A DNA stretch of 64,000 nt from Candidatus Xenobia bacterium (GCA_045863235.1 BTUM01000043.1:1-64000), one strand, 5' to 3'. Shown: positions 61 through 39,509, counted from the stretch's first letter. The notes: a model not told the origin generated them from the letters alone. Numbers and translations: made by a program.

Positions 61-1148
61 GTCGAAGAGGCAGAATCCAGCTCAAAGGCAGACTGCAGAG
101 CGACTTCAGCGCCAGAACGCGCCTCGGCCATCGGCGGACCGGCGTCCTGGCAGCAGACAACCTCGCTGGCGACTTCGAGTGCCTGCTCTACCTCTTCAGG
201 TGTGGCCGGCAAAAGACCCCGTCGGGTGTCAAACCATCCGCGCCCGGTCGAGCCGTCTACCCGCACGACCACGGGCAGCCTGGCCCGGGCGGCACCATCG
301 GCGCCGGCGAGAACTCGCCTGGCCAGTTCGGTCAGCACCTGGTTGCGAGAGATTCTTCGGCCGCGCTGTTGGCGGATGCGATCCTCAGCCCGCTCGTAGA
401 GTGCAAAGTCTTCCGCTGTAAGGGTAAAAACCAGCTTGACCAGCGTCGGCGAGGCAGGGGCCAGGGCTTCCTCGCATGGGCCGGCCGTCGTAGCCGGACA
501 TTGCTCGACCACGACAGGGGCATCCGAACTCTCTTGCGGGGAACCGGCCAGTTGGCGAAGTGACTCCGACCCCGCCCGGGTCCGGCTCGAACTCTCCTCC
601 AAAGAACCCGTTGCCAGTTGGCGAACTGCATCCGATCCCGCCTGGGCCGGCGGGCTCGAACTGTCCTCCTGAGAACAGGTGGTGGATAGCAGGCGAATTT
701 GTTCCGATTCGGCTGCCAGGGCCGCCCGGCGTGCCTTGAGGCCACGTGGACTGACGGAGACGGACCTCTCCACCTCGTCGGTGTTGTGGGAGAGAGCATA
801 GGCCAGCCAATGCTGTTCGTTCTCCGCCGTTGCGACCCGAGTAATCTCGCGCACCTTCCCCCAGCTCAAATCGCCACGCTGAAAGGCGGCCGCCAGGGCC
901 GGCAGACCCAGCAGCGCGCGGGTAGCACGGACCAGCTCATAGGCTTTGGGCCGGGTCAGACCCACGACTCTGACCGCATACTGGATGATACCGCTGCACT
1001 CGGACTGGAGATGAAGCTGTCTCTGCTCGATGGCCAGCAAGGCCAGGCCCAGACTCCACAAGCATGTATCCAGCTTACGCCGCAGGGCCCGGGCTCGCTG
1101 GCAAAGCTCCGATTCAGGCAACCCTAGCAGAGGAGTAAGAGGACCCAT
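1..1148 (-). CDS. DUF222 (13E12-repeat-like) protein, probably with a C-terminal HNH nuclease beyond the window edge; 3' truncated
   Basis: Not in the ORF track. Hand translation from ATG 1148 stays open to base 1: MGPLTPLLGLPESELCQRARALRRKLD...LPALAAAFQRGDLSWGKVREITRVATAENEQHWLAYA, which fits the DUF222 core pattern. The HNH domain is inferred, not seen. Confidence 0.75.
   Translation of the reverse strand, partial: MGPLTPLLGLPESELCQRARALRRKLDTCLWSLGLALLAIEQRQLHLQSECSGIIQYAVRVVGLTRPKAYELVRATRALLGLPALAAAFQRGDLSWGKVREITRVATAENEQHWLAYALSHNTDEVERSVSVSPRGLKARRAALAAESEQIRLLSTTCSQEDSSSPPAQAGSDAVRQLATGSLEESSSRTRAGSESLRQLAGSPQESSDAPVVVEQCPATTAGPCEEALAPASPTLVKLVFTLTAEDFALYERAEDRIRQQRGRRISRNQVLTELARRVLAGADGAARARLPVVVRVDGSTGRGWFDTRRGLLPATPEEVEQALEVASEVVCCQDAGPPMAEARSGAEVALQSAFELDSASSTRSAPEARSAPEVRPAPEAR
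525..676. repeat. Degenerate 63-69 bp tandem repeat in the DUF222 linker
   Basis: cgaact(c/g)tc at 525, 588 and 657; gccagttggcgaa occurs twice. Confidence 0.75.
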
Positions 1149-1272
1149 CGTGAAGTTTCCTTTCTGCGAAACTTTTCAGTCAGTCATAAATTTCGCTAAA
1201 CAAAATGAAATCCTGCGATCAAACGTTCGATTTTTGACAAAAAAAAAATTCAAGCCGAGTACCCGGCGGGTA

Positions 1273-1286
1273 CAAACACTTGTTTG
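1273..1286. promoter_or_regulatory. Possible LexA/SOS box (CAAAC-N4-GTTTG)
   Basis: Palindrome resembling the Gram-positive CGAAC-N4-GTTCG box, in an AT-rich region about 125 bp upstream of the DUF222 gene. Confidence 0.4.
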
Positions 1287-1337
1287 CGCGAGCGGGGTCG
1301 CATCGCAGGAGCCATTCAGATTCAACAGGTCTTCGAA

Positions 1338-1452
1338 CTAGGATGGAGCCATTGGCGGCTAGAAGTCCGGCCGCACCGCCACCACAAGATGTTGCAGGCG
1401 GAGGACTTCTAGCACAATATGTTGGGCGTGGGGTTTCCGGCTGCGCTCCTAG
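1338..1452 (+). repeat. Dispersed repeat copy A (MITE/IS-end-like, CTAG-flanked)
   Basis: ccgccaccacaagatgttg...tagcacaatatgttgggcgt...ggtttccggctgcgctcctag; internal inverted repeat gctagaagtcc/ggacttctagc; blocks shared with copies at 26250, 35262 and 39524. Confidence 0.8.
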
Positions 1453-1717
1453 ACTTCGTCGAATGGACCGCGCCAGGTAACGTGCGGAGATGGTCCTGAG
1501 CCCGGCGACGCCAGAGCGGTGGTCAGCAGGCGCTCTCGGCTGTCCAGAGCTCAGCCGTCCGAACAAGGAGGGTGGTCACCATCGGCCCGACCGAACCACC
1601 ATCCAGAGCGTGACTCGTCAGCCGACGCGTCCAGAGCGGGGGCGCACTCTTCCGGTACCTGTCCGTCGCTGCCACGCTGCGCCCGCTCTGGACGTTTTGT
1701 CCGTCGGCGACTCCGGC

Positions 1718-2626
1718 TCAGCAGGAGCGCAGGCTCTGCAGCCGCTCCTCCAGCGGCGGGTGGGTGCCATGCTGAGGGCTGCTTCCCACGGCCTTGAGCA
1801 GAGCCGACTCTGCCTTTTCCACGGGAATCCCCTCGGCTCGCAAAATGCCTACCGCGTAACAGTCGGCCGCCTTCTCGTGGGTCCGGGACATGGCCTCGTA
1901 ATCCCTGGCAAAGGGCTCGCGCATGAACGGCACGGACATGATCCAGCCCACCTGGTCGAGGTAGGAAGCTCGGGTCGCACCGTGGCGTAGCTCGACGTGC
2001 CCGAGCTCGTGGCCTCCCACGAACAAGAGCTCCTCGTCATCGAGCCGGCTGGCCAGGTTGCGCTCGATCAACAGGGCGCCGTTGGAACAGGCCTGGGCGT
2101 TCACCCGGTTGTTGTTCTCCAGATGAACCTGATAAGGAATTTCGCCACGCCTGGCGTGGGTGAGGAGGGTCTGCCCCACGCGGGCGACGCGCTGCTCCTG
2201 CTCGGCATCCCGAGCCGGACGGCCTGAGGTGGCCTTACGCTGGCACTGCGAGCCCAACTCCAGCTCCTGCTCGAGGGTCACCTGCGTTGGATCGGCGACG
2301 ATAGGATGGTTAGCGTGAAGAGCTGTGCCGGCAAAATGCAAACTCATGCCCACGGCCACGCAACCGGCCAGGAACAGGCCGCCGGCATAACGCTTCCAGA
2401 AGGATTCACGTCCCTCGCACTCCCCCCCGCCGGGACCACCCGTCTCAGACGGCGCCAGGCAGGGCTCGCCGCTCAGGCCATTCGGGCCTGGCACGCTTGG
2501 GCACCGGACCGCGTCGCTCGTCCAATCGTCCGAACCCTCCTGGCCCGCGCCAACGCAAGATCCCAGGGTTGCTCGCGTCGAAACGACCCCAGCCCAGTGC
2601 GCTCCGCCAAATCCGTGGATTTGCAT
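1718..2626 (-). CDS. M48-family zinc metallopeptidase with a low-complexity N-terminus and one TM segment
   Basis: VNAQA, GHELGH (HExxH), EKAADCYA, THPPLEERL. Start placed at ATG 2626 (TAGTCT 7 nt upstream). Confidence 0.85.
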   Translation of the reverse strand: MQIHGFGGAHWAGVVSTRATLGSCVGAGQEGSDDWTSDAVRCPSVPGPNGLSGEPCLAPSETGGPGGGECEGRESFWKRYAGGLFLAGCVAVGMSLHFAGTALHANHPIVADPTQVTLEQELELGSQCQRKATSGRPARDAEQEQRVARVGQTLLTHARRGEIPYQVHLENNNRVNAQACSNGALLIERNLASRLDDEELLFVGGHELGHVELRHGATRASYLDQVGWIMSVPFMREPFARDYEAMSRTHEKAADCYAVGILRAEGIPVEKAESALLKAVGSSPQHGTHPPLEERLQSLRSC

Positions 2627-2667
2627 GTCTACCAGACTAGACCCCCAAGCCGAACAAGTTCTGAAAA

Positions 2668-2702
2668 GCAAGAAAACCCGAACCTGCAGCAGGCCGGGTC
2701 TC
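2668..2702 (-). terminator. Probable intrinsic terminator after infA
   Basis: Minus strand acccggcctg-ctg-caggttcgggt followed by tttctt. Confidence 0.55.
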
Positions 2703-2721
2703 CGAGGCGAGGGGCGGAGCC

Positions 2722-2943
2722 TTACTTGAAGCGGTAGGTGATGCGACCACGCGTGAGGTCGTAGGGGGAAAGCTCCACAGTCACCTTGTCGCCAGGAAGG
2801 ATGCGGATGAAATGGCGCCGGATCTTTCCGGACACGTGGGCCAGTACGCGGTGCCCATTGGGCAGCTCCACGCCGAAGCGGGCGTTGGGGAAAGCTTCCA
2901 CAACCGTGCCTTCGACTTCGATGGCTTCTTCCTTATCGGACAT
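2722..2943 (-). CDS. infA: Translation initiation factor IF-1
   Basis: [23 protein letters not shown]...[33 protein letters not shown]. Confidence 0.99.
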
Positions 2944-3020
2944 GCGGCTTTACCTCCTTTCTTGCATCGGTTCCAAACAGAAGACCCCGGCCCCGCGGCC
3001 GCGGTCGTTTGTTCGCCGAC

Positions 3021-3049
3021 ATTATGAACGAACAGCCCTGAAAATGCAA
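3021..3049 (-). promoter_or_regulatory. sigma70-type promoter of infA
   Basis: TTGCAT-N17-CATAAT on the minus strand. Confidence 0.7.
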
Positions 3050-3099
3050 CCCCCCGCAGTTTTTGGCGATTTTTCAGAGCTCGAGCCTATCCTCAGGCT

Positions 3100-4549: not shown

Positions 4550-6115
4550 TTGGAGCGCTACCGGGATGAGCTGCGCCGGGGCCTGATCAACGTCGCTCTC
4601 AAGTGGGGTGAGGGCTACGATCGCAACGGCAATCCCTACGCCTGGATGGTGGACACCCGCGAGCTATTGCTCCAGGGGCCCTACCTTCATTACGCGGCGC
4701 GTTTGTTGTGGGAGCGCCTCAAGCCCTATCGTCCCGAGGTGGTGGCCGGCATGACCCTGGCTGCCAACCCCCTGGTCATCGCGCTCATGTACGAGAGCCG
4801 TCAGGACGGGCTACCGGTGAACGGGGCGATCGTCCGCCGCGCCCCCAAGGAGGACGGCCTGCGCAAGCTGGTGGAGGGCCCCCTTATCCCGGCCGGTGCA
4901 CGGGTGGCCATCCTGGATGATCTGGTCAACGCCGGCCACACCCAGAGACAGGCCATGCAGGCCATCGCGCCCTTTGATTGCCGGGTGGTGGCGGTGGGAG
5001 TGCTGATCGATTACCTGAAGGAAGGCTCCCTCTGGCTTCGCGAGCTCGAGATCCCCCTGGAATCGCTCTTTACCCTGCCCGAGCTGGGAGTCACCCTCGA
5101 GAGGGAGTTGCCAACCGATGCGGCCCGACTGGCCTGGACCTTCGAGGGTCTGAACTCGGGCCGGTACAACGCTCCCAAGTCCACCCCGGCAGTCACCCCT
5201 GAGGCGCTCTACGTGGGCAGCGATCAGGGCTTCCTGGTGGCCCTCTCTCCTCAGGGCCAGGAGCTATGGCGTTACCCGGTGCGCGATCAGGAACGCGGCG
5301 TCCATTCCTCGCCCCTCTGGCTGGATGGACGGGTCTACTTCGGAGCCTACGATGGTTACCTCTACTGCGTGGAAGAGGGCCGGCTGGTCTGGGAGACGCG
5401 CCCGGGGCAGTGGATCGGCTCCTCGCCCGCTCACCACGATGGGTTGATCTACGTGGGCATCGAGTACGGCGAGGCGGGCGGAAGCCTGCTGGCAGTGGAA
5501 GCAGCCACCGGCCGGCAGCGCTGGGAGCTCAAGGCCGGTCACTACATCCACTCCTCTCCCTTCGTGGATGAGCCACGCGGCCAGGTCATCGTAGGTGCCA
5601 ACGACGGCCTGGTGCGGGCGGCCGACCTGGTCAGCGGTGAGCTGCGCTGGGAGTTCGAGACAGGCGGCCCCATCAAGGGCCAGCCGGTGGTGGATCCGGA
5701 CGGAACCGTCTTCGTGGCTTCCTTCGACGGCCAACTCTACGCGCTCTCGGCCGGGACGGGTCGGGAGCTGTGGCGACGCCGCCTTTCCTTCCAGCTGTAC
5801 AACACGCCCCTGATCTACGAGAGCCTGGTCGTCGCGGGCGGGAGCTCGGGGCGATTGCTGGCCCTGGACCGAGCTACCGGCGAGGTGCGCTGGGTGGCGC
5901 CCACCGGGGCCTCCATGGTGGGGGGTGCAGCCCTGGTGGGACGCGACCTTCTGGCCGCGGCCGGCACGAACGGCCAGGTCTTCCTCTACACGGCCTCGAC
6001 CGGCCAACCCCGCTGGAGCTTTTCGACCGGCGTCCAGGTCATGGGCACCCCGGCGGCCACCGAAGGCGGCTTCTGCCTGGCGACCTTCAATGCCCTCTAC
6101 AGCTTCAGCCTGTGA
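4550..6115 (+). CDS. Orotate-phosphoribosyltransferase-like domain fused to a PQQ/BamB-type beta-propeller
   Basis: IVRRAPKEDG, VAILDDLVNAGHT (PRPP loop); repeated SSP...vyvGs.DG.lya....G...W blades. Confidence 0.85.
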   Translation: MERYRDELRRGLINVALKWGEGYDRNGNPYAWMVDTRELLLQGPYLHYAARLLWERLKPYRPEVVAGMTLAANPLVIALMYESRQDGLPVNGAIVRRAPKEDGLRKLVEGPLIPAGARVAILDDLVNAGHTQRQAMQAIAPFDCRVVAVGVLIDYLKEGSLWLRELEIPLESLFTLPELGVTLERELPTDAARLAWTFEGLNSGRYNAPKSTPAVTPEALYVGSDQGFLVALSPQGQELWRYPVRDQERGVHSSPLWLDGRVYFGAYDGYLYCVEEGRLVWETRPGQWIGSSPAHHDGLIYVGIEYGEAGGSLLAVEAATGRQRWELKAGHYIHSSPFVDEPRGQVIVGANDGLVRAADLVSGELRWEFETGGPIKGQPVVDPDGTVFVASFDGQLYALSAGTGRELWRRRLSFQLYNTPLIYESLVVAGGSSGRLLALDRATGEVRWVAPTGASMVGGAALVGRDLLAAAGTNGQVFLYTASTGQPRWSFSTGVQVMGTPAATEGGFCLATFNALYSFSL

Positions 6116-7991
6116 TGCCACCTTCCAACCAGCTGCTGTCCGCCTCGGGCGTCAGGGCGGCATGCGTCTCGCCCAATCGCAGTAAGAGCTCGCGCACGTC
6201 CTCGAGAGCCTCGGCGTGATCTTGCACCGAGCCCGTTCCCTGCGCGAGCAGGGCGGCCAGGGTGGATTCCAGGCTCTTGACGTGAACCTCGAACTCCGAG
6301 GCCACCCGCTCGAGCTCCCCATCCTCGCCCACCGCCTGCTGGTTAGCCTTGCTCCAGGCGGCCAGGCGACGCGAGGCGTCCCGCACCACCTGATGGCACT
6401 GGGTCAAAAGCGGACGAATCACAGTCAGCTCCTGCTCGGTCTCCAGGGCCCGGGTGAACCGGTCGAACAGGCTGCCCGCCTTGACCGTGGCTGTGTCTTC
6501 CTCGTTCTCGCCCTCGTCCGGCCAGACCAGGCGAGCGCCGCAACCGCTGCAGTTGCGAATCTTCTGGTTTTTCAACCCGCACTGAAAGCAGGTCACCAGG
6601 TCTTTCTCCTCCTGCAGCAGGCGAATCGTCTCCCGGCACCAGAGCCAGCGGTCGAAGGCCTCCTCCAGCTCGCGCAGGGCGGCGGCCAGGGCGGTCCGAT
6701 CGTCAGCCTCGGCCGCGTCGCGCAGCTTCTCGAACGAGGCCAGAGGGGCGCTGACGGCCGCTTGCAGGGCGTCGTGCTCGAGCGCCTTGAGGCTGGACAG
6801 CTCTCCCTCCAGCTCGGTCGCTTCCAGGTAGCACTGCTCCAGCTTGCCCAGCAAGAACGGGCGTGGAACGCTGCCGGCATACCAGCCTTTGACCGCCTCA
6901 CGCAGCTCCTCCAGCAGCGGATCGGCGGCAAACGAGCGGCTCTGCGGCCCTTTCTCGACCCAGGCCTTCTTCTTGTTCAGCAGCTCCTGACCCAGTCGAA
7001 ACAGCTCCATGAGCTTGCGCTCGGAAGGCTCGGCCCGGGCCCCGGCCAGGGTCGTCTCGAAGCGCTCGAGCACAGGGCGAACGGTGCCCTCCCAGGTCTG
7101 CTCACCGCGCTGCGAGAGCAGCACGGTATCGTGAAAGCGCTGGCAGTCGGCCCGCTGCTCCTCGAGAAAGCCCTGCAGCCTGACGAAGTGCGCTTCCAGG
7201 CGCTCGGGGGTGGCTCCACCTCGGGCCGCCCGCGCGAACGCGTCCAGCACCGCCACCTCGGAGAAGCCCTCCTGGCGGCGCACCTGAGCCACGGCATTGA
7301 AGCTCGAGTTGAGGTCGATGGCGGCGTTCTGGAGCAGCTTGACGGCCTCGGCCAGGCTCTCGCGGCGGCCAGCTGGGTCCTCCAGAAAGTGGACCAGCGC
7401 CCCCACCGCCTGCTCGAAGGTTGTCAGAGCGCCCTGAATGCGCTGGGCTACCGCCTGGTTGTGCGGGTAGCTCTCGCGAAAAACCTGGCCTTCAGCCTCG
7501 TAGGCCTGGTGCAGCTTGACCAGATCGGCCACGCGTGCCCCCAGGAGCTCGTGGTCGCCCAGTCCATCGCGAATGGCGCGCACCGCTTTGAGGGCGTCGT
7601 CCAGCGCGGGAATGGGAACGTCCTGGGGCAACAGGCGGCGCTCGCGTTCGAGCTGCTCGGACAGGGTCGCGATCTGAAAGGAGAGCTCTTGCAGCCGCTT
7701 GCCCGACGCCACCAGGGGATCGCGCTTGGGATTGGCCAGCTCGGCGGAAAGCTCACCCAGCAGAGCTTCGCGCTGATCCAGCTGGGTCAACAGCTGGTCG
7801 GCCAGGGCCACCAGGCGCTCGTGCCCCAGCACCACCCCTCGGGTCAAGCGGGCCAGGTTCCGCGAACGCTGGTGCCGATCCTGAGCGGCGGCCACCAGCT
7901 CCAGGCATTGAGAGCCGGCCAGAGTGCCTTCCAGCACCATCACCAGGCCCTCCACCAGGGCCGAAATCTCGCGCGCATAGCGTGGTGTCAT
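6105..7991 (-). CDS. Hypothetical alpha-helical protein with a zinc ribbon
   Basis: 628 aa; CFQC...CSGC; 4-bp overlap with the upstream kinase. Confidence 0.75.
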   Translation of the reverse strand: MTPRYAREISALVEGLVMVLEGTLAGSQCLELVAAAQDRHQRSRNLARLTRGVVLGHERLVALADQLLTQLDQREALLGELSAELANPKRDPLVASGKRLQELSFQIATLSEQLERERRLLPQDVPIPALDDALKAVRAIRDGLGDHELLGARVADLVKLHQAYEAEGQVFRESYPHNQAVAQRIQGALTTFEQAVGALVHFLEDPAGRRESLAEAVKLLQNAAIDLNSSFNAVAQVRRQEGFSEVAVLDAFARAARGGATPERLEAHFVRLQGFLEEQRADCQRFHDTVLLSQRGEQTWEGTVRPVLERFETTLAGARAEPSERKLMELFRLGQELLNKKKAWVEKGPQSRSFAADPLLEELREAVKGWYAGSVPRPFLLGKLEQCYLEATELEGELSSLKALEHDALQAAVSAPLASFEKLRDAAEADDRTALAAALRELEEAFDRWLWCRETIRLLQEEKDLVTCFQCGLKNQKIRNCSGCGARLVWPDEGENEEDTATVKAGSLFDRFTRALETEQELTVIRPLLTQCHQVVRDASRRLAAWSKANQQAVGEDGELERVASEFEVHVKSLESTLAALLAQGTGSVQDHAEALEDVRELLLRLGETHAALTPEADSSWLEGGITG

Positions 7992-27620: not shown

Positions 27621-29468
27621 GTGCAGTGCCCAGCATGCTCATACCAGGACCAGAGCGATGCCATGGTCTGCCCTCGCTGCAACACCCCGCTGGCCACGGC
27701 TTACTATGCCCGCCAGCCCCTGCCCGAGGGAACGCCCCTCCAGGGCGGCGTCTACCGGGTGGGCGAGAAGATCGGCATGGGGGCGACCAGCATCGTCTAC
27801 TCTGGCGTCGAGGTCCGGCTCAACCATCCCATCGCCATCAAGGAGTTCTTCCCCCTCACCGCTCGTCGCGAAGGCCTGAAGGTGGTGCCCACCAACCCCG
27901 GGAGCGGCCCGCGCCGCAAGCTCAACGTCGAGCGAGAAGAGTTCCTGGAGGAAGGTCGCCTGCTCTCGCGCTTCAACCACCCCGGTATCACCGGCGTCCA
28001 CAACCTGTTCGAGGAGAACGAGACCGCCTACCTGGTGATGGAGCTTCTTCACGGGGCCACCCTCTACGAGCTGGCCACCGAGCGTGGAGGCAAGCTCGAG
28101 CAAGACGAGGTCATGCGCTGCGTGCTGCAGATCCCGCCTGCGCTCGAGACCATGCACCTTTACGGGCTGGTGCACGCCGACCTCAAGCCTGACAACCTCA
28201 TGCTCACCGAGGAAGGGCGGGTCGTGCTGCTCGATTTCGGAGCCACCTACCGCTATCTGACCGGCACCGGCAAGACCCAGGAGTTCACCCCCGCCTACGC
28301 CGCTCCCGAGCAGCTTCCCGAACAGGCCGGCCAGCTCGGGCCGTTCACCGACATTTACGGGCTGGCCGCCACGCTCTATCAGCTGCTGGCCGGCAGACGC
28401 CCTACCCCGGCTCGGGCCCGCATTTCAGGCGAGCGCCTGGAGAACCTCAAAGAGCTGCGTCCGGACGTGCACCCCCGCCTGGCCGCCGTGCTGGAGCGGT
28501 CGCTCGAGCTAGACCCGGGCCGCCGCCCCCAGGACATCAAAACCTTTGTGAAGCTGCTGGGGGGCTCGTCGGAGCACGCCGAAACCCGGGCCGCTTACAC
28601 GGTGGAGGAGTCTGGCTGCCTGCGGGCCCACCGGGCTCCCCTGGTCGCCCTGGACGCCTCCGCCGACGGGCGCTTCCTGGCCTCGGGCAGCGAGGATGGC
28701 GCAGTGTGGCTGTGGGACACGTTTCAGAACACTTCCTACCAGGCCCTGACCCAACCCGGGCTGACCGGCCTCAAGCTGGGACCGGACGCCAGCTGGCTGA
28801 TGCTGTCGGCGGCAGACGGAAGCGTGCGGCTGTGGGACCTGGTGCGCGAGCGCGACCTGAAGGTGCTCAAGCGGGGGCAGCCCCGGGTGGAGGTTCTGGC
28901 CCGCACCCCGGACGGAGGTTGGCTGGGAGCCGGCTGCGTGGATGGCCGGGCCAGCCTGTGGAAGAGCCCGGGGACCACTTTCATGCTGCTCACCGGGCAT
29001 ACCCGCCCGGTCTTCGCCATGGCCATCGCCCCCAATGGCGCGATGGCGGCCACCGGCTCGGGCGACCTGACCGTCCGGGTATGGGAGGCGGACACCGGCA
29101 CCACCCTGCGAGTCCTGTCGGGTCACCAAAAACAGATCCAGGACCTGGCCTTCTCGCCAGACGGGGCGCTGCTCGCCTCCAGCTCCCTCGACCGCACCAT
29201 CCGGGTTTGGGATCCCTTTTCGGGCAGGGAAATTCGCTGCTTCGAATGTCCCGTGCCCTTATGCACCGCCTTTTCTCCCGACGGAGAAGTGCTGGTGGCC
29301 GGCTCGCTCAACGGCTCGCTGCAATTTTACCACCTGGCCTCGGGTCGTCGCCTGATCGAGGTGAAGGCCCACACCGGGGGGGTGAGGGGACTTGTGCTCT
29401 TGCCCGAGGGACGCCTGGCCACCGGCTCGGTGGACTCCACCGTCCGCCTCTGGGAGGTCCAGGGCTAA
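27621..29468 (+). CDS. Zinc ribbon + Ser/Thr kinase + WD40 protein
   Basis: CPAC...CPRC; HADLKPDN, DFG, YAAPE; GH...WD/WE repeats. Confidence 0.95.
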   Translation: MQCPACSYQDQSDAMVCPRCNTPLATAYYARQPLPEGTPLQGGVYRVGEKIGMGATSIVYSGVEVRLNHPIAIKEFFPLTARREGLKVVPTNPGSGPRRKLNVEREEFLEEGRLLSRFNHPGITGVHNLFEENETAYLVMELLHGATLYELATERGGKLEQDEVMRCVLQIPPALETMHLYGLVHADLKPDNLMLTEEGRVVLLDFGATYRYLTGTGKTQEFTPAYAAPEQLPEQAGQLGPFTDIYGLAATLYQLLAGRRPTPARARISGERLENLKELRPDVHPRLAAVLERSLELDPGRRPQDIKTFVKLLGGSSEHAETRAAYTVEESGCLRAHRAPLVALDASADGRFLASGSEDGAVWLWDTFQNTSYQALTQPGLTGLKLGPDASWLMLSAADGSVRLWDLVRERDLKVLKRGQPRVEVLARTPDGGWLGAGCVDGRASLWKSPGTTFMLLTGHTRPVFAMAIAPNGAMAATGSGDLTVRVWEADTGTTLRVLSGHQKQIQDLAFSPDGALLASSSLDRTIRVWDPFSGREIRCFECPVPLCTAFSPDGEVLVAGSLNGSLQFYHLASGRRLIEVKAHTGGVRGLVLLPEGRLATGSVDSTVRLWEVQG

Positions 29469-31594: not shown

Positions 31595-34453
31595 TCAGCG
31601 CCAGTCGCCGATCAAGACGAAGGGAGCCCAGTAGTATGGGTGGCTGGTGGCCGGCTGGCGAAGCAGTTTCAGCTGGGCCTCCTGCATCGAGAGGGCCAGG
31701 TTCTGGCCCTGGCCCAGCCCGTCGTAGAGGGCCAGCATCAGATCGCGGGTGGAGCGATCATCCACCTTCCACAGGCTGGCCACCAGCGAGGGGCTGCCGG
31801 CAAAGCTGAAGGCGTCAGCCAGGGTGGTCAGCTCCGAGCCAGGCTCGCGCTCGGCCAGGGCCGTCTGACAGGCCGACAGGGTGACCAGGCGCACACCCTT
31901 CAAATCCAGGCCTGCGATATCGCCCACGCCCATGCGCTGCTCTCCAGCCATGACCAGGTAGCTCGAGCTGGGGCTCTTGGAGTTGAGAATGCCGTGGGTG
32001 GCCAGGTGCAGCATGCCCATCCCTTTCGCCAGTTCCACGAAACGCTCGTTGGTGGCCTGGGCGCCCAGCAGCAGTCGGCTGCCGGGATGCTTGCGGCTGA
32101 GCTCCTCGGCCTCCTGGGCGGAGGCCGGCAAGGTTCCATCCGGATTACCCACGGCCAGCAGCGCCGGGTCCATCTTGCCCGGGGGGCGGGTCAGTTGCTC
32201 GAGGTCGCTGGACCTGGTCAGCACCACCACCGCCTTGCGCTCGATGAGATAGCCCTCGCTCGAGCGCAGGGCCTGAAAGGGCAGATAGTGCAGACTGCCG
32301 GTGGGAATCACCGCCAGGATGGGCCGCTGGCCCAGGTCGGCCTGAACGGGAGCGATGAGCCACTCATAGAGCTGGGCGGCGGGTGCGCTCAGCTCCTCCC
32401 GGCGGCTGCAACCGGCGCGCAGGGCCCGGACCTGCTCTTCGATCTGGGCCCGGCTGACCTCGACCTGGCGGATGGTCAGCTGCTGCCGAGTCAAAACGAA
32501 GAGATAAAGCCGTTTCTCGGACGGGAAATACTGCACCACGGTCACGTCCTCGGGCAGCAAAGGCTGAAGACGGCTGAAGTTGACCGGACGCACGGCCAGC
32601 AGGCGCTCGTAGTCGGGGTTCTGGGAGCGGAGTTGCTGCAGCCCGAGGTAGAAGCTGGCCCGGTCGGGGTTCTGGGCGCCTGCCGAGCCCAGCCGGCGCA
32701 GTTCGTCGGCGGCCGGTTTGAGCTCGGGCAGTCCCCGGCTCAGCTCATCGAGCTCCAGGCCGGCCCGCGCTTCCACCTGGGCCAGGCGGCCCTGGACCTC
32801 CATAGCCTCCTGCACCTTGCCGGCCTTTAGATACAGCTCACTGAGCCGGTCGTAGGCGGGACGATAGCGGGTGCGCACGGCCTGCGTGGCCTCCGGACCG
32901 CCGCCCGACTCGGCGATCAGACGCTCGATCAAGTCCACTGCTTCCTCCAGGTCGCTCCGCTGGCCCAGGGCGATCAGGGCCTGGATACGACCAGGGGGGA
33001 AGTCCCGGTACTCCTGCTCGAGCTGCCGGGCCAGGGTGGGGTCGGGACGGGCCTCCAGCTCGACCCAGCGGGGATCGTCCAGGCCCAGGAAGCCGCGGTA
33101 TCGGTCCAGATAACGTCTGGCTCGAGCCATATCGCTGTCGAAGTCGACCTGAGTGCGAGCCCGCTTGAGATGGTAAACCCCCAGCAGGCGAGCCAGCGCC
33201 CCTTCATTCCAGACCAGGGCGAACGGGCTGGGAGCCGCACCGGGCGGGGGCGGTGTGGGATCCAGGGCGTACTGGGCCAGTTGGAAGGCCAGGGTGGCCT
33301 CATCAAAGCGCCGTTCCAGCTCGACCCGAGGGGTGGCCAGCAGGTCGAGGCGCTGGCGGGCCAGCCGGGTCTGGCCCAGGTTCTCCAGGCGGGTGATGGT
33401 GTCCAGCTCGAGACGAAAGAGGCCCAGCGCCAGCTCCGGATTCCACAGCTCGAGAAACTGGTGCGGCTGGGAGGGCTGCAGCGAGAAGGACTCCTCGAAG
33501 GCCTGCCGGTTCAGGCTCTGCAGCAGCTCCAGGTCGCGACGCACCAGGTAGTCGAGCTGGGCCTTGATGGGAAACTCCTCCACCTCGGCCGCCTGACGGC
33601 GCAGGGCCTCCACCACCCAGATCTGGGCCGCCAGGCAGAGCCAGCGCCCTTCGCCGGTGGCCAGGCGGCGCACGGTCAGACCGTCCAGGTGGCGCCAGGC
33701 TTGCTGGTGACGGGCCAGAAACTGCTCAAAGCTGAGCCGCGCCCCCTTCTCCAACTCGCGCTCGAGTGCCACGCTCTCCAGCACGAAACCAGCCACCGCC
33801 TCGCCGCGCAACAACGAGCGGGCCTTGCCAAGGTGCAGGTCCACCTCCTGGGTGCGGGCCAGCTGCCGCGAGGCCGACAGCAGGGCCAGTTCGTTGCTCA
33901 GGCTGGGGGCCAAGCGCTCGCCCAGTTGCAGGGCCTCGGCCGGTCGTCCCCCGCTCTCCATGGCCAGCAGCTCCATCTCGGCTGGTCCTCCCAGGGACTT
34001 CAGCATGCGCGCGGCCGCCTCCGGATCGCCCACCCGGATGGCCAGATGCAGACAGGCCAGCTTCTCCTGAGCGGGATCAGACCGGGTGGGAGCCAGGTTG
34101 GTGGGGATGGCGCGCCGGGTCAACAGCTCCGGGTCGTCAGCCAGGGCCGTGCCGTCCCAGGTGGTGGGCACGAGGTAGGCCTTCTGAGCCTTGAGCTGCT
34201 CGGTGGGAGCGGGGTCCCCGGCCAGCAGCAGAGCCCGGGCCAGGGCGTTGGCCAGGAGCTTGTCCTCGGGCAGCTTCAGCCTGGCCAGCAGCTCTCGCGC
34301 GAGCTGAGGCTCCATGAAGGCCGCCTGCCCCAGGCTGGCGTAGTCCTGGCTCTGCACCCAGGCACGCACTTTCTGCTCGAACGAGGCCAGCTCGTCCGAA
34401 CGAGCAGGCACGACCAGCAGAGCCAGAACAAGGACCGCCAGGAGCATACGCAT
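31595..34453 (-). CDS. Secreted CHAT-domain (caspase-like) protease with a helical N-terminal region
   Basis: Signal MRMLLAVLVLALLVVPA; IPTGSLHYLPF, LHLATHG, LVTLSACQT, SLWKVDD, HPYYWAPF. Confidence 0.93.
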   Translation of the reverse strand: MRMLLAVLVLALLVVPARSDELASFEQKVRAWVQSQDYASLGQAAFMEPQLARELLARLKLPEDKLLANALARALLLAGDPAPTEQLKAQKAYLVPTTWDGTALADDPELLTRRAIPTNLAPTRSDPAQEKLACLHLAIRVGDPEAAARMLKSLGGPAEMELLAMESGGRPAEALQLGERLAPSLSNELALLSASRQLARTQEVDLHLGKARSLLRGEAVAGFVLESVALERELEKGARLSFEQFLARHQQAWRHLDGLTVRRLATGEGRWLCLAAQIWVVEALRRQAAEVEEFPIKAQLDYLVRRDLELLQSLNRQAFEESFSLQPSQPHQFLELWNPELALGLFRLELDTITRLENLGQTRLARQRLDLLATPRVELERRFDEATLAFQLAQYALDPTPPPPGAAPSPFALVWNEGALARLLGVYHLKRARTQVDFDSDMARARRYLDRYRGFLGLDDPRWVELEARPDPTLARQLEQEYRDFPPGRIQALIALGQRSDLEEAVDLIERLIAESGGGPEATQAVRTRYRPAYDRLSELYLKAGKVQEAMEVQGRLAQVEARAGLELDELSRGLPELKPAADELRRLGSAGAQNPDRASFYLGLQQLRSQNPDYERLLAVRPVNFSRLQPLLPEDVTVVQYFPSEKRLYLFVLTRQQLTIRQVEVSRAQIEEQVRALRAGCSRREELSAPAAQLYEWLIAPVQADLGQRPILAVIPTGSLHYLPFQALRSSEGYLIERKAVVVLTRSSDLEQLTRPPGKMDPALLAVGNPDGTLPASAQEAEELSRKHPGSRLLLGAQATNERFVELAKGMGMLHLATHGILNSKSPSSSYLVMAGEQRMGVGDIAGLDLKGVRLVTLSACQTALAEREPGSELTTLADAFSFAGSPSLVASLWKVDDRSTRDLMLALYDGLGQGQNLALSMQEAQLKLLRQPATSHPYYWAPFVLIGDWR

Positions 34454-34738
34454 GGTGGGCAGATAGATTCTCGTCGGTCAGGGTCGACTCTTCTATAGTC
34501 TGTTGACATTCAGATCCGCTGAGAGCGCAGAGAGCGCGGAGACTCTGGTTGCGTCAATGATTGCCGGCCCGGACGCGAAGGCCTCCTTCGAGGAGGGGAC
34601 GACGCGAGTTCTGGCACTGACCATGGGGCAGGTCGCAAAGAGTTCAGAAGTTTGAGTCTTTCTTGAGCCAGTCTTGGGGTGTCCTTGACCGGGTCGTTCT
34701 AGACTGGGGACAGACACAACAACTGGAGGATATTCGCG

Positions 34739-35056
34739 ATGAAGAAAGTGATGCTGTCGATAGCCCTGATGCTCGGTCTGCTGCTGCCCGCACTGGCCGA
34801 ACCACGATCCGCTTCAGGAGGCGGCACAGCCCGGGGAGTCGGCCGGGGCCAGGGGGTCGGGGTGGTGCGAGGGAGTGGCACCGCTCAGGGCACCGGAACG
34901 GTGATCTATCGGGGCCAGGACGGTGGGCTCGAAGCCCGGCGGGGAACCGGTCAGGTGAGCGGACGGGGCCTGGCGATCGGTCGCGGTCAGTTCCGGGCCC
35001 GGGGCACTGCCTGCGGGCAGGGACATGTTCGCGGCTGGGGGCGTGCCCGCCCCTAG
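34739..35056 (+). CDS. Small secreted Gly-rich protein
   Basis: GGAGG RBS; Sec signal MKKVMLSIALMLGLLLPALA; GxG repeats. Confidence 0.8.
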   Translation: MKKVMLSIALMLGLLLPALAEPRSASGGGTARGVGRGQGVGVVRGSGTAQGTGTVIYRGQDGGLEARRGTGQVSGRGLAIGRGQFRARGTACGQGHVRGWGRARP

Positions 35057-35230
35057 CAGATTGATGCGAAGTCCTCGAAGAGGGCTTTGCATCATCCTGC
35101 GCTCAACCAGCCTGCTAAAGTGCAAGGCCTTTGGTCTTGCACTTTACAACGCGCTGGAACGCAGTTCCGGCGCGTTCGTCAGATTGTGCTAATGTGCAAA
35201 ACCAAAGTGCGAGCACATTAGACCTTTTTT
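35056..35230. repeat. Cluster of four adjacent inverted repeats
   Basis: Hairpins at 35056-35100, 35116-35146, 35148-35176 and 35189-35221, the last followed by a T run. Confidence 0.75.
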
Positions 35231-35261
35231 GCATCCTCTGGCTGAGGGGTCACCCCATCCT

Positions 35262-35369
35262 CCGCCACCACAAGAGGTTGTGGGCGGCCGGACTACGCTA
35301 TTAGCACAATATGTTGGGCGTCGCGTAGCCGGAAAACCGTGTCAAGGGGGTTTCCGGCTGCGCTCCCAG
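35262..35369 (+). repeat. Dispersed repeat copy C
   Basis: ccgccaccacaagaggttgtg...tagcacaatatgttgggcgt...tgtcaagggggtttccggctgcgctcccag. Confidence 0.8.
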
Positions 35370-35409
35370 GCTTGAGGAGACTTCCGGGCTCGGTGAACCA
35401 ACTCGCCGG

Positions 35410-35440
35410 AAAACACAAAAGCCACCTTTCGGTGGCTTTC
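35410..35440 (-). terminator. Intrinsic terminator ending the putative ncRNA
   Basis: Minus strand gaaagccacc-gaaa-ggtggcttttgtgtttt. Confidence 0.88.
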
Positions 35441-36087
35441 GTGGCCCGGCTCCAACCTCACCGGACACTCCTGGTTCAACCTTCAGTCGGTGGCCGACTT
35501 GCGCCGACGCTTCTCCTCGCGGTCCCGACCTGGTCCCAGGCCCGCCTCGATCTTCACGCAGTCGAGACACTGCTCCGTGCTGCGGTCTGCACGTTACCCC
35601 TGCCAGGTTTCGGTCTCTGGCAGCCCGCCAAGGCTCTCGCGCCTCGGAGCGCCGGCTCTCTCGCTTCGCCGGAGCGGCCGACCCTACGTTCTGTGTCGGC
35701 ACTGTCCTACTCGGTAGAAGCCCGATCGGACGTCTCGGCATTTTTACGCGGCCGAAACCCCGCGGCGTCACTGTGGTCTGCACGCTACCCCTGCCGTTCT
35801 CGGAGCGACAGTCCGCCGGTTCTTACGCTCCCCGGTGCGCCAGCGCAACGACTCGCTGGAGTGATCGGCTCCGGCCTCACCGATCTTCCCTGGCATTCCC
35901 CTCGAGGGCACCTTGCGGTGCACTCAACCTCGCGGTCTCGAGCTTGTCTCCAGGCCCGTTTCGATGTTCTCAGCAGTCGAAACACTGCGGCGCACTCTGG
36001 TCTGCACGCAACCCCTGCCAGGTCTCGGTTTCTGACAGCCCGCCGGATTCTTTCGCTCATCCGGTGCGGTCGGCGTCGCCGTCGACT
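35410..36087 (-). ncRNA. Putative ~680-nt ncRNA of three tandem structured ~200-nt units, class unknown
   Basis: Has its own promoter and terminator; core GGCAGGGGTWRCGTGCAGACC at 35584, 35775 and 35999; compensatory changes in several stems; no credible ORF. Confidence 0.8.
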
Positions 36088-36092
36088 TCGAC

Positions 36093-36121
36093 AATCTACT
36101 CGGGAAGCCAGATTCTGTCAA
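36093..36121 (-). promoter_or_regulatory. Near-consensus sigma70 promoter
   Basis: TTGACA (36121-36116)-N17-TAGATT (36098-36093). Confidence 0.85.
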
Positions 36122-36243
36122 CCCCATGATCATTGTTCGATGGACACGAACCCGATGCCATCAGGAAAAGAAAAATTCTGCAGGGGATCGGCTCGAACAA
36201 AGGTCGACCCCATGCCCCGGCAAAAGGAACTCCAACACCTGGC

Positions 36244-37092
36244 TCACCCTGATGCCAGGCTGGCCCACAGCTCGCGCGAATCGGGCTGGCGCTGGAGCCC
36301 CTCCTGGAGCTCTTGCTTGCCTCGCGAGCAGAGCGCCTCTGCCTGGGCCGTCTCGCGAGCCCCCAGCTCCAGGTGCTCGGAAGCCAGCGGCTCGACCTCC
36401 ACGTCCCATTCCACCGGCTCCAATCCGGCCGTCAGCTCGGCCCTCAGGGCGCTGATCTGCTCGAACCCGAGGCCACTTTCTCGAGCCAGCCGGCCCGCAT
36501 GCTGGGGAAGCAGGAAAGCGATGCGGCAGACCGCCTCACTTTGCGCGGCCGCGACTGCCGTGGCGATGCTCACCAACCGGTCGCGAACGCGCTCAGCGCG
36601 GGTGCGGTAGTAGGCCACCGACTCGCGCTGAAAGGTATCCAGCCTCTGCAACTCGAGGTTGCGCTGGAGATGAGTCTGGACGGCCTGGCGGAGCGGGGCC
36701 AGCCCCTGACCAAGTTGCTCCGGCCTGGCCGGACGCTGGAAGCGCTCGAGCACCTCCTGGCAGCTGCGCCGCTCGGCCTGCTTGCGTGCCACGATCCCCC
36801 CTTCCAGGCCGCGCACCTGGTCGATGGTCTGGCGGGCGAAGCCGGAGAAGCGTTCCACGGTCTCGTGCTGGCCGTCTCGCTGGGCGCGAACCCTGTCCGT
36901 CCAGCCCTCCAGCCACTGGGACAGTTGCCTGAGCTCACCCCAGTGCTGGCCAAACTCAAGACAGACGGACTGGCACAGGAGCCTGGCGCTCTGCTCAAGC
37001 GGCTGGGGCCCATCCTCGTGTCGGGCTGTCGGGGCGGCCAGCAGGGCGGGCGGCGCAAGGGTGGAGGGGGGAGCCAGAAGCTGGATCTGCAC
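36244..37092 (-). CDS. Hypothetical helical / coiled-coil protein
   Basis: 282-aa ORF; TAGAGT 6 nt before the GTG. Confidence 0.65.
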   Translation of the reverse strand: MQIQLLAPPSTLAPPALLAAPTARHEDGPQPLEQSARLLCQSVCLEFGQHWGELRQLSQWLEGWTDRVRAQRDGQHETVERFSGFARQTIDQVRGLEGGIVARKQAERRSCQEVLERFQRPARPEQLGQGLAPLRQAVQTHLQRNLELQRLDTFQRESVAYYRTRAERVRDRLVSIATAVAAAQSEAVCRIAFLLPQHAGRLARESGLGFEQISALRAELTAGLEPVEWDVEVEPLASEHLELGARETAQAEALCSRGKQELQEGLQRQPDSRELWASLASG

Positions 37093-37172
37093 GACTTGAC
37101 TCTAACTCATCGGGTTTTGCAAAACCTTTGCAAGGGCGGAGACGACCGCCCTGGCGTCGAATCCAAAGGGCG

Positions 37173-39509
37173 ATGCTGGACCGAGTCAGCCTCAAAGGGC
37201 CGACCATCACCGACCGGGTCGCCTTCCTGGGCAAGCTCCAGGCCGATGGGACGCGCCCCCTCGACGAGGTCGTCTTTTCCCAGGATGGCACCAGGGCCTT
37301 CCTCAAGGACGCCGAGGGACTGGTTTCGGTGGCGCCGGACGGAACCCGCCAGGTCCTCTGCCCATGGCAGAAAGATCGGTCTCCCATGGGGGCCCCGTTC
37401 GAGCTTCCCGGAGGGGGGGTGGCGTTCTTCCGAGGTGGTTCCTCCACGGTCCGGGACCTGACCGCAGTAGGTGCGGACGGCTCTCCCCTCTGGTCGGTGC
37501 CGGTAGAGCGGGACGCACCCGATCGGGCCCGCTTTTTGCAAGACCGGGTCTTGCTTTGTGGCGACCAGTGCGTGAAGGCGGTCAGCCTCCAGAACGGCAA
37601 ACTGCTCTGGGCCCACGACATCCCGCGGTTTTCCACCCTCAGCAGCACTCCCGATGGCCATCTGCTCGTGGGCGACGACCAGCAGGTCTATTCGCTGACC
37701 CCCGAAGGGGAGCGCCAGGACCTGCCCCTGCAACTTCCCCCCGACCAGCGTTGCATCGCGCTCACGGCAACCGGGGACGGCGCTCTATTGATCCAGCACT
37801 CCCAGGAGCTGCGCTGCTACAATCCGGATGGCTCGGTGCGCTGGAGTCGGCCGGGCTACGGCGAGAGGGTGCCGGTGGGCGAAGGGCCCGGGGTCTACTA
37901 CCAGGTTCAGGATCACACCCTCCAGGGCCTGGATCCGGCTACCGGCGAGTCGAAGTGGACGGTGGACGGATACTCCTTGCGCCGCAGCTACCACCTCGAC
38001 CCGGAGGGGCGTGTGCGCTTCGTTCCCCTGCAGCCGTTCGGCGAGCTGTGGACGGTCGACCCCCGGGGAGGGGTCCTGGTGCAGAAACTTCCCAAGGAGG
38101 CGGGCGCGCCCGACCAGATCGCGATCCAGCCAGACGGATCCACCCTGTTGATCAGCTTCGGCAAGGTGGTGCCACTGGCCCCGCCCGAGGCTGGCGCCTC
38201 CAAGGGCGAGTTCGAGCTCTTGCAGGAAGCCACCGAGCGGGTTACCGGCCTGTCCCGAGAGCAATTGAGCCACCTCGAGCCCGAGGAGTGGCGCCCCCTG
38301 ATGGAGAGAGCCCGCGCGCTCCTTCTCCAGCGCCGGAACGCCGAAGACCGGGCCCTGGCCAGCCGGGCAAGCTGCAGCGAGGCCACCCGGCCCTTCGATC
38401 AGGAGCACCAGCAACTCAAGGAGCTCTATAGCCAGTGCGAGCTCACCCGGCCGGCCCGGGAGGGACTGCTGGCCGTGTGGGGCCAGCACCATGCGGTGGA
38501 AGGCTGGGAACGCCGCCTGTTCGGCGAAAAGGTCACGCCTGAGCAGCGGAGCTGGCTCTATCAAAGCGCCTCCGATCTGATCCATGGCCCCCGCGTGGAG
38601 CGGTTGAGCGAGCTGCCCGAGGCCACCCTGCGCCTGGCCTGCGAGGAGATGCTGGGGCCACCAGGGCGCGAGACGGACAACCCCGCCCTGCTGCTCGACG
38701 CCTGCCATCGAGCCAGCGAGCAGTCGCCCTGGCAAAGGAGGCGGGCCCTGGAAGTTCTGGCGAAATTGGACCGCAGCGCCGACGCATCTTTGTTTGCCGA
38801 CCTGATCTCCACCAAAGACTTCGTGGAGCGGGTGGACAAACTGCTGACTCAACCTTTCCCCACCTGCCAGGTGCCGGTGGCCCTCAAGATCCTGGCGGGA
38901 CAGGATCCGGGTCCAGTCCAGGCGGGGAGCGAGCAAGAGTCGCTGGCCCTGGCCCGACTCGCCGGGCTGGAGCCGAAGGCTCTGGAGCAGCTGTGGCCGG
39001 CTCTGCAGGTCAGTCAGAAGGGCCAGACCGCGCGCGAGTTGCAGGACCTGTGTCCCACCAACCCGGCCGTGGCCACCACCGTGCTCGGTCAATCCGACGA
39101 GCAGAACGCCGTTCAGCTGACCGAGAGTCTCTTGCGCTCAGGCCGCCTGAGGAGCGACGAGAGCGCCCGGGTGGGCGCTTACCTCGTCGCTCGACGCCTT
39201 GAGAGCGGGGCCGAGCTGGTAGGAGTGGGGCGGGAGTTGCTCGACGAGACCGGTGAGCCGGCCTGGCTGGGCGGAGCCCTGACCGGTTTCCTGGAAGCCG
39301 CCAGCGCCCGGGGGGTAATCGGCCTGAACGCGCTGCTCCAGTCCCAATCTCCCCGCCCGGTGGCCGAGCTGCGCCCACTGGTGAGCGAGGCCGTCGCTCG
39401 CGCCGAGACCAGCAAGCTCCACGCCCCCGAGCAAAGTGGCGGCGTGGCCCGGCTGGGCTCCAACCTGGTGGTCGGCAACGTGGCCCTGAGAACCCGCTCC
39501 CGCAGCTGA
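37173..39509 (+). CDS. PQQ-like beta-propeller + helical domain protein with the C-terminal VGNV motif variant
   Basis: DGSPLW, NGKLLW, DGSVRW and TGESKW blades; ends VARLGSNLVVGNVALRTR. Confidence 0.8.
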   Translation: MLDRVSLKGPTITDRVAFLGKLQADGTRPLDEVVFSQDGTRAFLKDAEGLVSVAPDGTRQVLCPWQKDRSPMGAPFELPGGGVAFFRGGSSTVRDLTAVGADGSPLWSVPVERDAPDRARFLQDRVLLCGDQCVKAVSLQNGKLLWAHDIPRFSTLSSTPDGHLLVGDDQQVYSLTPEGERQDLPLQLPPDQRCIALTATGDGALLIQHSQELRCYNPDGSVRWSRPGYGERVPVGEGPGVYYQVQDHTLQGLDPATGESKWTVDGYSLRRSYHLDPEGRVRFVPLQPFGELWTVDPRGGVLVQKLPKEAGAPDQIAIQPDGSTLLISFGKVVPLAPPEAGASKGEFELLQEATERVTGLSREQLSHLEPEEWRPLMERARALLLQRRNAEDRALASRASCSEATRPFDQEHQQLKELYSQCELTRPAREGLLAVWGQHHAVEGWERRLFGEKVTPEQRSWLYQSASDLIHGPRVERLSELPEATLRLACEEMLGPPGRETDNPALLLDACHRASEQSPWQRRRALEVLAKLDRSADASLFADLISTKDFVERVDKLLTQPFPTCQVPVALKILAGQDPGPVQAGSEQESLALARLAGLEPKALEQLWPALQVSQKGQTARELQDLCPTNPAVATTVLGQSDEQNAVQLTESLLRSGRLRSDESARVGAYLVARRLESGAELVGVGRELLDETGEPAWLGGALTGFLEAASARGVIGLNALLQSQSPRPVAELRPLVSEAVARAETSKLHAPEQSGGVARLGSNLVVGNVALRTRSRS

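Follow-up and report, generated by a model that had tools for sequence, protein, structure and literature searches.

A multi-locus family of tandemly modular, pseudoknotted non-coding RNAs in large-genome Eremiobacterota

A stand-alone gene for an abundant RNA

What is encoded on the minus strand between positions 36121 and 35405 of a 64,000-nt stretch of Candidatus Xenobia bacterium DNA (GCA_045863235.1, BTUM01000043.1:1-64000; hereafter, the window)? A sequence-only reading had placed here an independently transcribed, apparently trans-acting RNA of ~680 nt, built from three tandem pseudoknotted units and belonging to no recognisable class. We find that a highly abundant and stable non-coding RNA, somewhat shorter than first supposed (~630 nt, 36074-35445), has a gene of its own here, and that the locus is one member of a multi-locus, lineage-wide RNA family. 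We are highly confident that the family is real, novel, structured and trans-acting; the mechanism that we propose for it is put forward far more tentatively.

The gene carries its own signals at both ends. A sigma-70-type promoter, TTGACA-N17-TAGATT (36093-36121, minus strand, 10/12 matches), is the sole promoter-like site in 34300-36400, where shuffled sequences average 0.1. At the other end lies an intrinsic terminator (35405-35443, minus strand) with a 13-bp stem, a GAAA loop and a U-run, recognised from the sequence and from a 13-nt inverted repeat (35414-35426/35431-35443, 92% complementary) followed by a T-run. Both signals had been named in the sequence-only reading, and both stand. 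A simple terminator scan did not flag the 35414-35443 hairpin, probably because its stem extends into the T-run. Downstream of the promoter, sequence comparison and the ends of RNA contigs define a 5' leader hairpin, GUCGAC-GGCGAC-GCCGAC (36069-36086, minus strand).

All or part of the stretch is contained in 20 of the 24 expression runs listed (14 studies); of these 20 runs, 14 contain at least half of the sampled words and 17 are entered as RNA libraries. Four of the RNA runs, each from a different study (X1, X2, X3 and X7) and labelled as bioreactor, soil and sludge plus a fourth source given as a code, were mapped as assembled contigs, with depth taken per contig, against 34700-36900; further runs containing the stretch come from wastewater, sediment and aquatic sources. 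In all four mapped runs the contigs, mostly exact matches, are confined to the interval from 35444/35446 through 36064/36078, with depths of 5371-7217 in X1, 498-3053 in X3 (one contig with 2 differences), 54-257 in X2 and 10-12 in X7. The flanking protein genes have a depth of 0-3, the bin 36106-36179 is at 0 in all four runs, and the terminator hairpin is nearly uncovered (summed depth 0-0.92 over the bin 35366-35439, all four runs). Together with the promoter and terminator, this confinement bears out the claim of independent transcription and delimits a mature, abundant RNA of ~630 nt at 35445-36074 (minus strand).

Contigs end at 35444-35446 in X2, X3 and X7, and at the other side they stop within the leader hairpin, at 36074-36078. 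In X2, adapter-like letters, which we take to be Illumina adapter ends, abut both 35445 and 36074, so that whole ~630-nt molecules seem to have been cloned. On our reading, the 3' end is trimmed to the foot of the last module's terminal hairpin, the terminator hairpin being removed after transcription, and the mature 5' end falls within the leader hairpin or close to it; both ends are contig-based and approximate. Both junctions between the three units are bridged at the same depth as the unit interiors (X1 records 7 and 8, exact matches), X2 record 12 spans 35505-36074, and one 592-nt contig with 2 differences spans nearly the whole RNA. We read this as one abundant ~630-nt RNA with its modules joined, the contig data being compatible with a minor cut fraction; the suggestion that the transcript is a precursor cut into ~200-nt RNAs is thus not favoured.

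Directly downstream of the gene lie two dispersed repeats of ~110 nt each (35112-35225 and 35259-35370), members of families with at least 28 and at least 12 genome copies, respectively, at 86-100% identity and with internal inverted repeats (MITE/REP-like). The weak, multi-copy RNA-seq signal downstream of the gene (depth 5-100) is attributable to them.

The region had also been described as holding no credible open reading frame (ORF). Strictly, ORFs do exist (423 aa on the plus strand, 160 aa on the minus strand); what stands is that they do not look coding, given a GC content by codon position that is flat (0.63/0.65/0.67) vs 0.75/0.45/0.85 in neighbouring genes, and no Pfam match for any of the five overlapping ORFs searched (E<=0.01).

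Three modules with a conserved fold

The mature RNA (39% G, 22% A) consists of three diverged repeats, as had been claimed. A 27-nt core (D2) occurs three times at spacings of 191 and 224 nt, and a 72-nt direct repeat (D1) is 83% identical between units 1 and 3. Tandem Repeats Finder did not detect the units, which are too diverged for it, and reported only a 9-nt artefact in the terminator. A covariance model, R1, built from an alignment (A1) of 78 distinct units, taken from this genome and from relatives, matches all three cores (36049-35947, 90.8 bits; 35822-35723, 82.8 bits; 35634-35533, 101.7 bits), and the whole stretch folds better than 20/20 shuffles (z-score -4.25).

All modules share a core consisting of hairpin P1, an invariant GGGGU joiner, hairpin P2 (ACC in its loop is invariant, AG nearly so), hairpin P3 and an H-type pseudoknot that pairs the P3 loop with a strand 7-10 nt downstream. 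A GGU/ACC contact between loop and joiner is a candidate addition to this core. They come in two forms, short (~105-145 nt) and long (~185-205 nt), the latter adding a GNRA-rich 3' domain and a hairpin whose purine-rich loop resembles a ribosome-binding site. Module 1 (35863-36049, minus strand, as are the others) is of the long type, supported by the R1 score and by covariation: it is preceded by a GNRA-capped hairpin, P0 (36064-36043), and consists of the core with its pseudoknot (36049-35947), a 3' domain of P4, P5, GNRA-capped P5a and P6, and the terminal hairpin P7 (35885-35863). A linker hairpin read from the sequence, CCAGCG-N8-CGCUGG (35840-35859, minus strand), separates it from module 2 (35677-35822), a short module in which the core, with an 8-bp pseudoknot, is joined by a closing helix (CGGAC/GUCCG) and followed by two small hairpins, without the P4-P7 domain. 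Module 3 (35444-35634) is again long, preceded by two P0-like hairpins (35676-35627), with its core at 35634-35533, a 3' domain, and P7 at 35466-35444 carrying the loop UGAGGUUGGAG; its type is backed by P4 and P7, both 100% paired with compensatory changes. The GNRA tetraloops of a module are GAAA in P0, GCGA or GUGA in P5a and GCAA in P6.

The fold is kept where the sequence is not. In the sequence-only alignment of 78 units, 83.6% of cells are paired vs 72.5% in column shuffles, double-change cells number 231 vs 64, 23/28 pairs covary, and sliding the partners by 1-3 columns lowers pairing to 24-42%. A model-based alignment of the R1 matches (150, of which 91 distinct) gives 86.4% paired vs 71.2% shuffled and 347 vs 93 double-change cells, figures that lean towards the nested helices to which this alignment is fitted. 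By helix, pairing in it reaches 98.7% for P1, 96.8% for P2 and 94.0% for P3; the pseudoknot, which is absent from the model, is paired in 66.6% with double changes in 7/7 pairs, and in the 40 long modules its pairing rises to 95.7%. Within these 40 modules, P4 (CCUGG/CCAGG) and P7 both reach 100% pairing and show compensatory changes in 4/5 pairs each, and P5a is likewise 100% paired. P5 and P6 are paired in 57-59% in the sequence-only alignment of the long modules, a low value that we ascribe to misalignment of variable hairpins by MAFFT; judged by eye, both are likely covarying GNRA-capped stems. The conclusion that RNA structure is under selection thus holds in the sequence-only, model-based and long-module alignments alike, and compensatory changes were found for each of the helices singled out beforehand: the conserved stem (P1), the two stems of the pseudoknot (P3 and its loop pairing) and the terminal CGG-UGAGG..GGAG-CCG hairpin (P7). 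The strand, which the contigs do not prove, follows from a tally of pair types in the model-based alignment: ~200 of the 2466 paired cells are G-U, and on the plus strand these would turn into A-C mismatches, which makes the RNA a minus-strand product.

A possible long-range pair, CGGGC/GCCUG (closing helix Pa), fared less evenly. Pa is paired in 78.1% of the model-based alignment with double changes in 3/4 pairs, but its 3' strand overlaps P4 in long modules, so it is secure only for the short ones. In long modules, Pa and P4 could be alternative pairings; GCCUGG, by pairing either with the 5' CGGGC and closing the core or with CCAGG and closing the 3' domain, would then act as a built-in conformational switch.

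The P7 loop keeps the pattern U-G-x-G-G..G-G-x-G in 40/40 long units, such that each long module presents one purine-rich GG..GG (GGA-type) loop and short modules present none. In this genome, GGAG (499 vs 247) and GAGG (449 vs 241) rank with the most enriched tetramers of the interval from -20 to -5 upstream of predicted starts, as counted with a crude first-ATG heuristic against an upstream control window.

Paralogous loci and distribution in the phylum

The window's locus is not alone in its genome. A DNA search revealed paralogous stretches on other contigs, and R1 finds 27 modules on nine contigs in arrays of 1-5: five each on C59 and C111, four on C13, three each on C43 (the window), C23 and C6, two on C79 and one each on C35 and C12. 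The end of C13 (123393-123816) and the start of C111 (1-641) both break within near-identical 106-nt short modules; probably a long array was collapsed or split there by the assembly, in which case the true count exceeds 27. Every locus is served by a strong promoter and a terminator of its own, and most follow a common plan of near-consensus promoter, leader hairpin, 1-5 tandem units and a similar terminator. The TTGACA/TAnAnT pair recurs at the paralogous loci, equivalent terminators close other loci of the family, and the leader hairpin opens the transcripts of 6/8 loci with an assembled 5' end: besides the window, C23, C6, C79 and C59 have kept it and C111 has a more diverged version, while it is not seen at C35 or C12. 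In the upstream regions of eight loci, read by eye, a CGAACA motif just 5' of the -35 box (36134-36139, minus strand, directly upstream of GGGGTTGACA in the window) lies at the same place at 5/8 promoters (the window, C23, C6, C59 and C111), as a palindrome at C23, and it is inverted at a sixth, C35. It may be a regulator site or a UP-like site shared by the family's promoters, and its recurrence hints at common regulation of the loci.

Module order is conserved both between paralogous loci and between species: the long-short-long arrangement of the window recurs at C23, the short type occupies the same array position in relatives, and the window's locus has a 96% identical orthologue in congeners. 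The surroundings, by comparison, are not shared. Among 66 flanking ORFs around the nine loci there is no common Pfam family, which argues for action in trans, and at 8/9 loci the terminator is not followed by a gene on the same strand. Together with the lack of a gene within the window's own transcription unit, this agrees with the trans action proposed earlier. At the ninth locus, a single module on C12 (C12:51127-51995; L083 4990-5900) with its own terminator lies ~90 nt upstream of a same-strand gene for an ECF-transporter substrate component (PF12822), an arrangement kept in 3/3 genomes of the genus with assembled upstream DNA (G000, the window's own, G001 and G004).

Searching relatives with a covariance model had been suggested in the sequence-only reading, and R1 was run on 151 genomes sampled evenly across the phylum. 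Matches were found in 23, own genome included. By family, matching genomes are 4/4 in f1, 15/16 in f2 and 1/1 in f5, with one single weak match each in f3 (1/19, E = 3e-4) and f15 (1/71, E = 8e-4) and none in the other 16 families (0/39). The RNA is thus present in three families, two of them sisters, with no convincing copy in the 129 other sampled genomes. Carriers have genomes of 5-9.5 Mb, vs 1.9-4.7 Mb in the non-carrier sister family f3. A carrier genome holds up to at least 26 modules (26 candidates being scored per genome), and the number per transcript ranges from 1 to 6 across genomes. Arrays are longer in f2 relatives, one of which has six modules on ~1.4 kb between one promoter and one terminator (L027).

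A pattern scan of species-representative genomes returned 30 loci, of which 13 carry an Eremiobacterota or Vulcanimicrobiota label, 13 are real modules under other labels and four are chance. In one record labelled Selenomonadaceae, the module region is identical, over the part read, to G009, a member of the window's order. The four chance matches (L023, L030, L032 and L033, found among the 10/30 loci read) lie in unrelated sequence and were left out of the model search, as were the overlapping duplicates L028 and L045. Phage-borne copies were sought as well, and none of 23 pattern matches in viral contigs is convincing (best 17.7 bits vs 26-106 for real copies). In one relative, a bacterial RNase P RNA gene (L034 502-875, plus strand, 271.6 bits) is located ~1.3 kb upstream of a five-module array, which is probably coincidence.

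Relation to known RNA classes

The statement that the RNA belongs to no recognisable class survives the searches made. Rfam 15 gives no match at gathering score in the window, chance-level hits only (E 8.4-9.9, to miRNA and atpB models) in E-value mode, and no match on the modules of five divergent relatives. In 34000-37500, ARAGORN detects neither a tRNA nor a tmRNA gene. A full-text literature search, as far as its listings and the first lines of abstracts go, turned up no paper on an RNA of Eremiobacterota. The family is absent from Rfam 15, uncatalogued and confined to a few large-genome families of Eremiobacterota.

Its nearest likenesses are functional or architectural. Like ROOL, GOLLD, OLE and the raiA motif, all without known function at discovery, it is an abundant, several-hundred-nt product of a stand-alone gene, with a complex fold containing pseudoknots and GNRA loops; their Rfam 15 models do not match it, and it differs from them in being built of 1-6 tandem modules, in occupying about nine loci per genome and in occurring in Eremiobacterota only. 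Tandem riboswitch aptamers (e.g., those for glycine) also place repeated, complex aptamer-like domains on one transcript, but here there is no downstream regulated gene at 8/9 loci and no expression platform, and modules number up to 5-6. ToxI-type antitoxin RNAs likewise consist of tandem direct repeats, each folding into a pseudoknot, that are transcribed from a dedicated promoter and closed by a terminator behind the array; the present units, however, are several times longer, remain joined in the abundant RNA, lie at nine loci per genome and have no toxin endoribonuclease gene behind them.

Several identities were tried and set aside. A type III antitoxin finds no toxin endoribonuclease downstream, where we see the dispersed repeats, a convergent small ORF and a CHAT-domain gene, and no toxin-type Pfam match occurs among the neighbours of the nine loci; the cutting of the array expected of such a system is countered by contigs that bridge both junctions at equal depth, a minor cut fraction being still possible. 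For 6S RNA, no RF00013 match exists in the window, and a classic riboswitch would need a regulated same-strand gene, which 8/9 loci do not have, the C12 module upstream of the ECF gene showing no visible alternative pairing; both identities are unlikely. Bacterial Y RNA was rejected as the Ro (TROVE) domain PF05731 has no match in the genome, while it is found in control genomes. Elsewhere in the genome, a separate, full-length but sub-threshold 6S candidate was noted at C34:8852-9026 (minus strand; 35.5 bits vs a gathering score of 46.4).

Possible functions

We tentatively propose, as a possibility that we would not call probable, that the RNA is a multivalent binding platform acting in trans. 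All modules would bind the same partner, with one site per module. A protein or ribonucleoprotein, possibly the small ribosomal subunit or a regulator that reads the purine-rich loop, is a likelier partner than a small molecule; the arrays and the many loci would supply many sites, such that the partner could be titrated or scaffolded. The range of 1-6 modules per transcript fits an additive function that resides in each module, and the many loci, very high level, variable module number and absence of linked genes fit such a platform. Since the P7 loop has both GAGG and GGAG, words enriched before starts, mimicry of a ribosome-binding site is one possibility. Among possible protein partners, the genome has one Hfq gene, a protein too widespread to be informative, and no RRM proteins; ANTAR proteins were also not found, the same search being equally silent in control genomes. 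The 16S rRNA gene was not found in the assembly.

Several points weigh against this proposal. Its partner is hypothetical, and CsrA, the known reader of GGA loops, was not found in the genome (97.6% complete). A pseudoknotted fold of ~100-230 nt that has several GNRA loops and invariant bases in its joiner exceeds what known sponges need, and it resembles a ligand pocket or a catalytic core more closely. The purine-rich hairpin is missing from short modules, which implies that the loop is not the whole story. Finally, depth was derived from assembled contigs, so that absolute abundance, ends and minor forms are approximate.

The fold itself invites other explanations. That each module is a self-contained RNA machine, built around a high-affinity ligand pocket or around a core that is catalytic or self-assembling, and that the arrays work without a dedicated protein, is an idea that we consider somewhat unlikely yet worth spelling out. 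In one version, which we judge unlikely, the module is a small-molecule aptamer and the arrays are "riboswitches without a switch" that buffer or store a metabolite or signalling nucleotide, with one copy acting in cis. The invariant unpaired GGGGU, ACC and AG of the pseudoknotted core are reminiscent of ligand pockets, and the C12 module ~90 nt upstream of the ECF gene, kept in 3/3 testable genomes, would be the cis-acting copy; but conservation inside one genus is not independent evidence, the C12 terminator has no obvious alternative pairing with the module (by eye), the module is absent from 20/20 orthologous ECF loci in f2 and f3, and the remaining 8/9 loci have no downstream same-strand gene within the unit. 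The only known riboswitches at orthologous ECF genes are TPP riboswitches 1-2 kb away, apparently belonging to other genes. In another version, which strikes us as rather improbable, GNRA loops and their receptors would fold tandem modules onto each other, or onto other copies, into a large RNA-only particle, which would match in cis the homo-oligomerisation reported for ROOL and GOLLD. The several GNRA tetraloops per module, the very high abundance and the conserved module orders (e.g., long-short-long at C43 and C23) agree with such an architectural RNA, yet the receptors are hypothetical, and single-module loci (C35 and C12) exist.

Catalysis is very improbable, whether as self-cleavage into monomers or in trans. 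Size and complexity of fold are typical of ribozymes, and a CUGAUGA...GAAA string is present in the P1 hairpins of some relatives, but most units do not have this hammerhead-like string, which is without a stem II, none of the Rfam ribozyme families matches, and both junctions are bridged at the depth of module interiors. A CsrB/RsmZ-type sponge for CsrA shares with the RNA its trans action, abundance and repetition, and a GGA-containing, purine-rich hairpin loop presented many times. Here, however, the repeat is a pseudoknotted domain of 100-230 nt rather than a short GGA hairpin, with a single GGA-type loop per long module, and csrA runs opposite to the RNA across the phylum: PF02599, positive in control genomes, has 0 matches in the window's genome and matches 1/4 of the genus's genomes and 5/16 genomes in f2; in f15, a family without the RNA, the count is 67/71. 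We reject this sponge and leave it hardly any chance. Least credible is that there is no functional RNA at all, the region being a plus-strand coding sequence or a decaying repeat. The 423-aa plus-strand ORF does span it, but this is refuted by the flat codon-position GC and lack of Pfam matches, by compensatory changes that include G-U pairs, meaningful for a minus-strand RNA only, by an RNA depth thousands-fold above the flanks and by the 96% identical orthologue in congeners.

Neighbourhood and significance

Beyond the dispersed repeats, the RNA gene is convergent with a 105-aa ORF (34739-35056, plus strand) that has a GGAGGA ribosome-binding site, a signal-peptide-like start, a Gly/Arg-rich body and no Pfam match. 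Further away are genes for a 952-aa protein that has a CHAT domain and a long helical N-terminal part (31595-34453, minus strand) and for a Ser/Thr-kinase-like protein with WD40-like repeats (27621-29468, plus strand), neither with an apparent link to the RNA.

Bacterial RNAs that are both large and intricate in fold are rare, and new biology has come out of nearly all that were studied. The present family is unusual in placing 1-6 tandem pseudoknotted domains of ~100-230 nt on one transcript and in occupying about nine loci per genome, and its RNA is among the most deeply covered features of the organism's DNA in the four metatranscriptomes. At 630 nt and with strong covariation, it is tractable for cryo-EM, chemical probing and pull-downs. 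If its modules do prove to be RNA machines, arrays of them would represent a new class of large functional RNA, for instance as expressed aptamers that buffer a metabolite or second messenger, or as a particle assembled in cis from RNA only. Eremiobacterota are a widespread phylum with almost no cultured members, for which the covariance model provides a ready marker in RNA data, and the RNA itself marks a deep split among them, being present in large-genome lineages and absent from a small-genome sister family.

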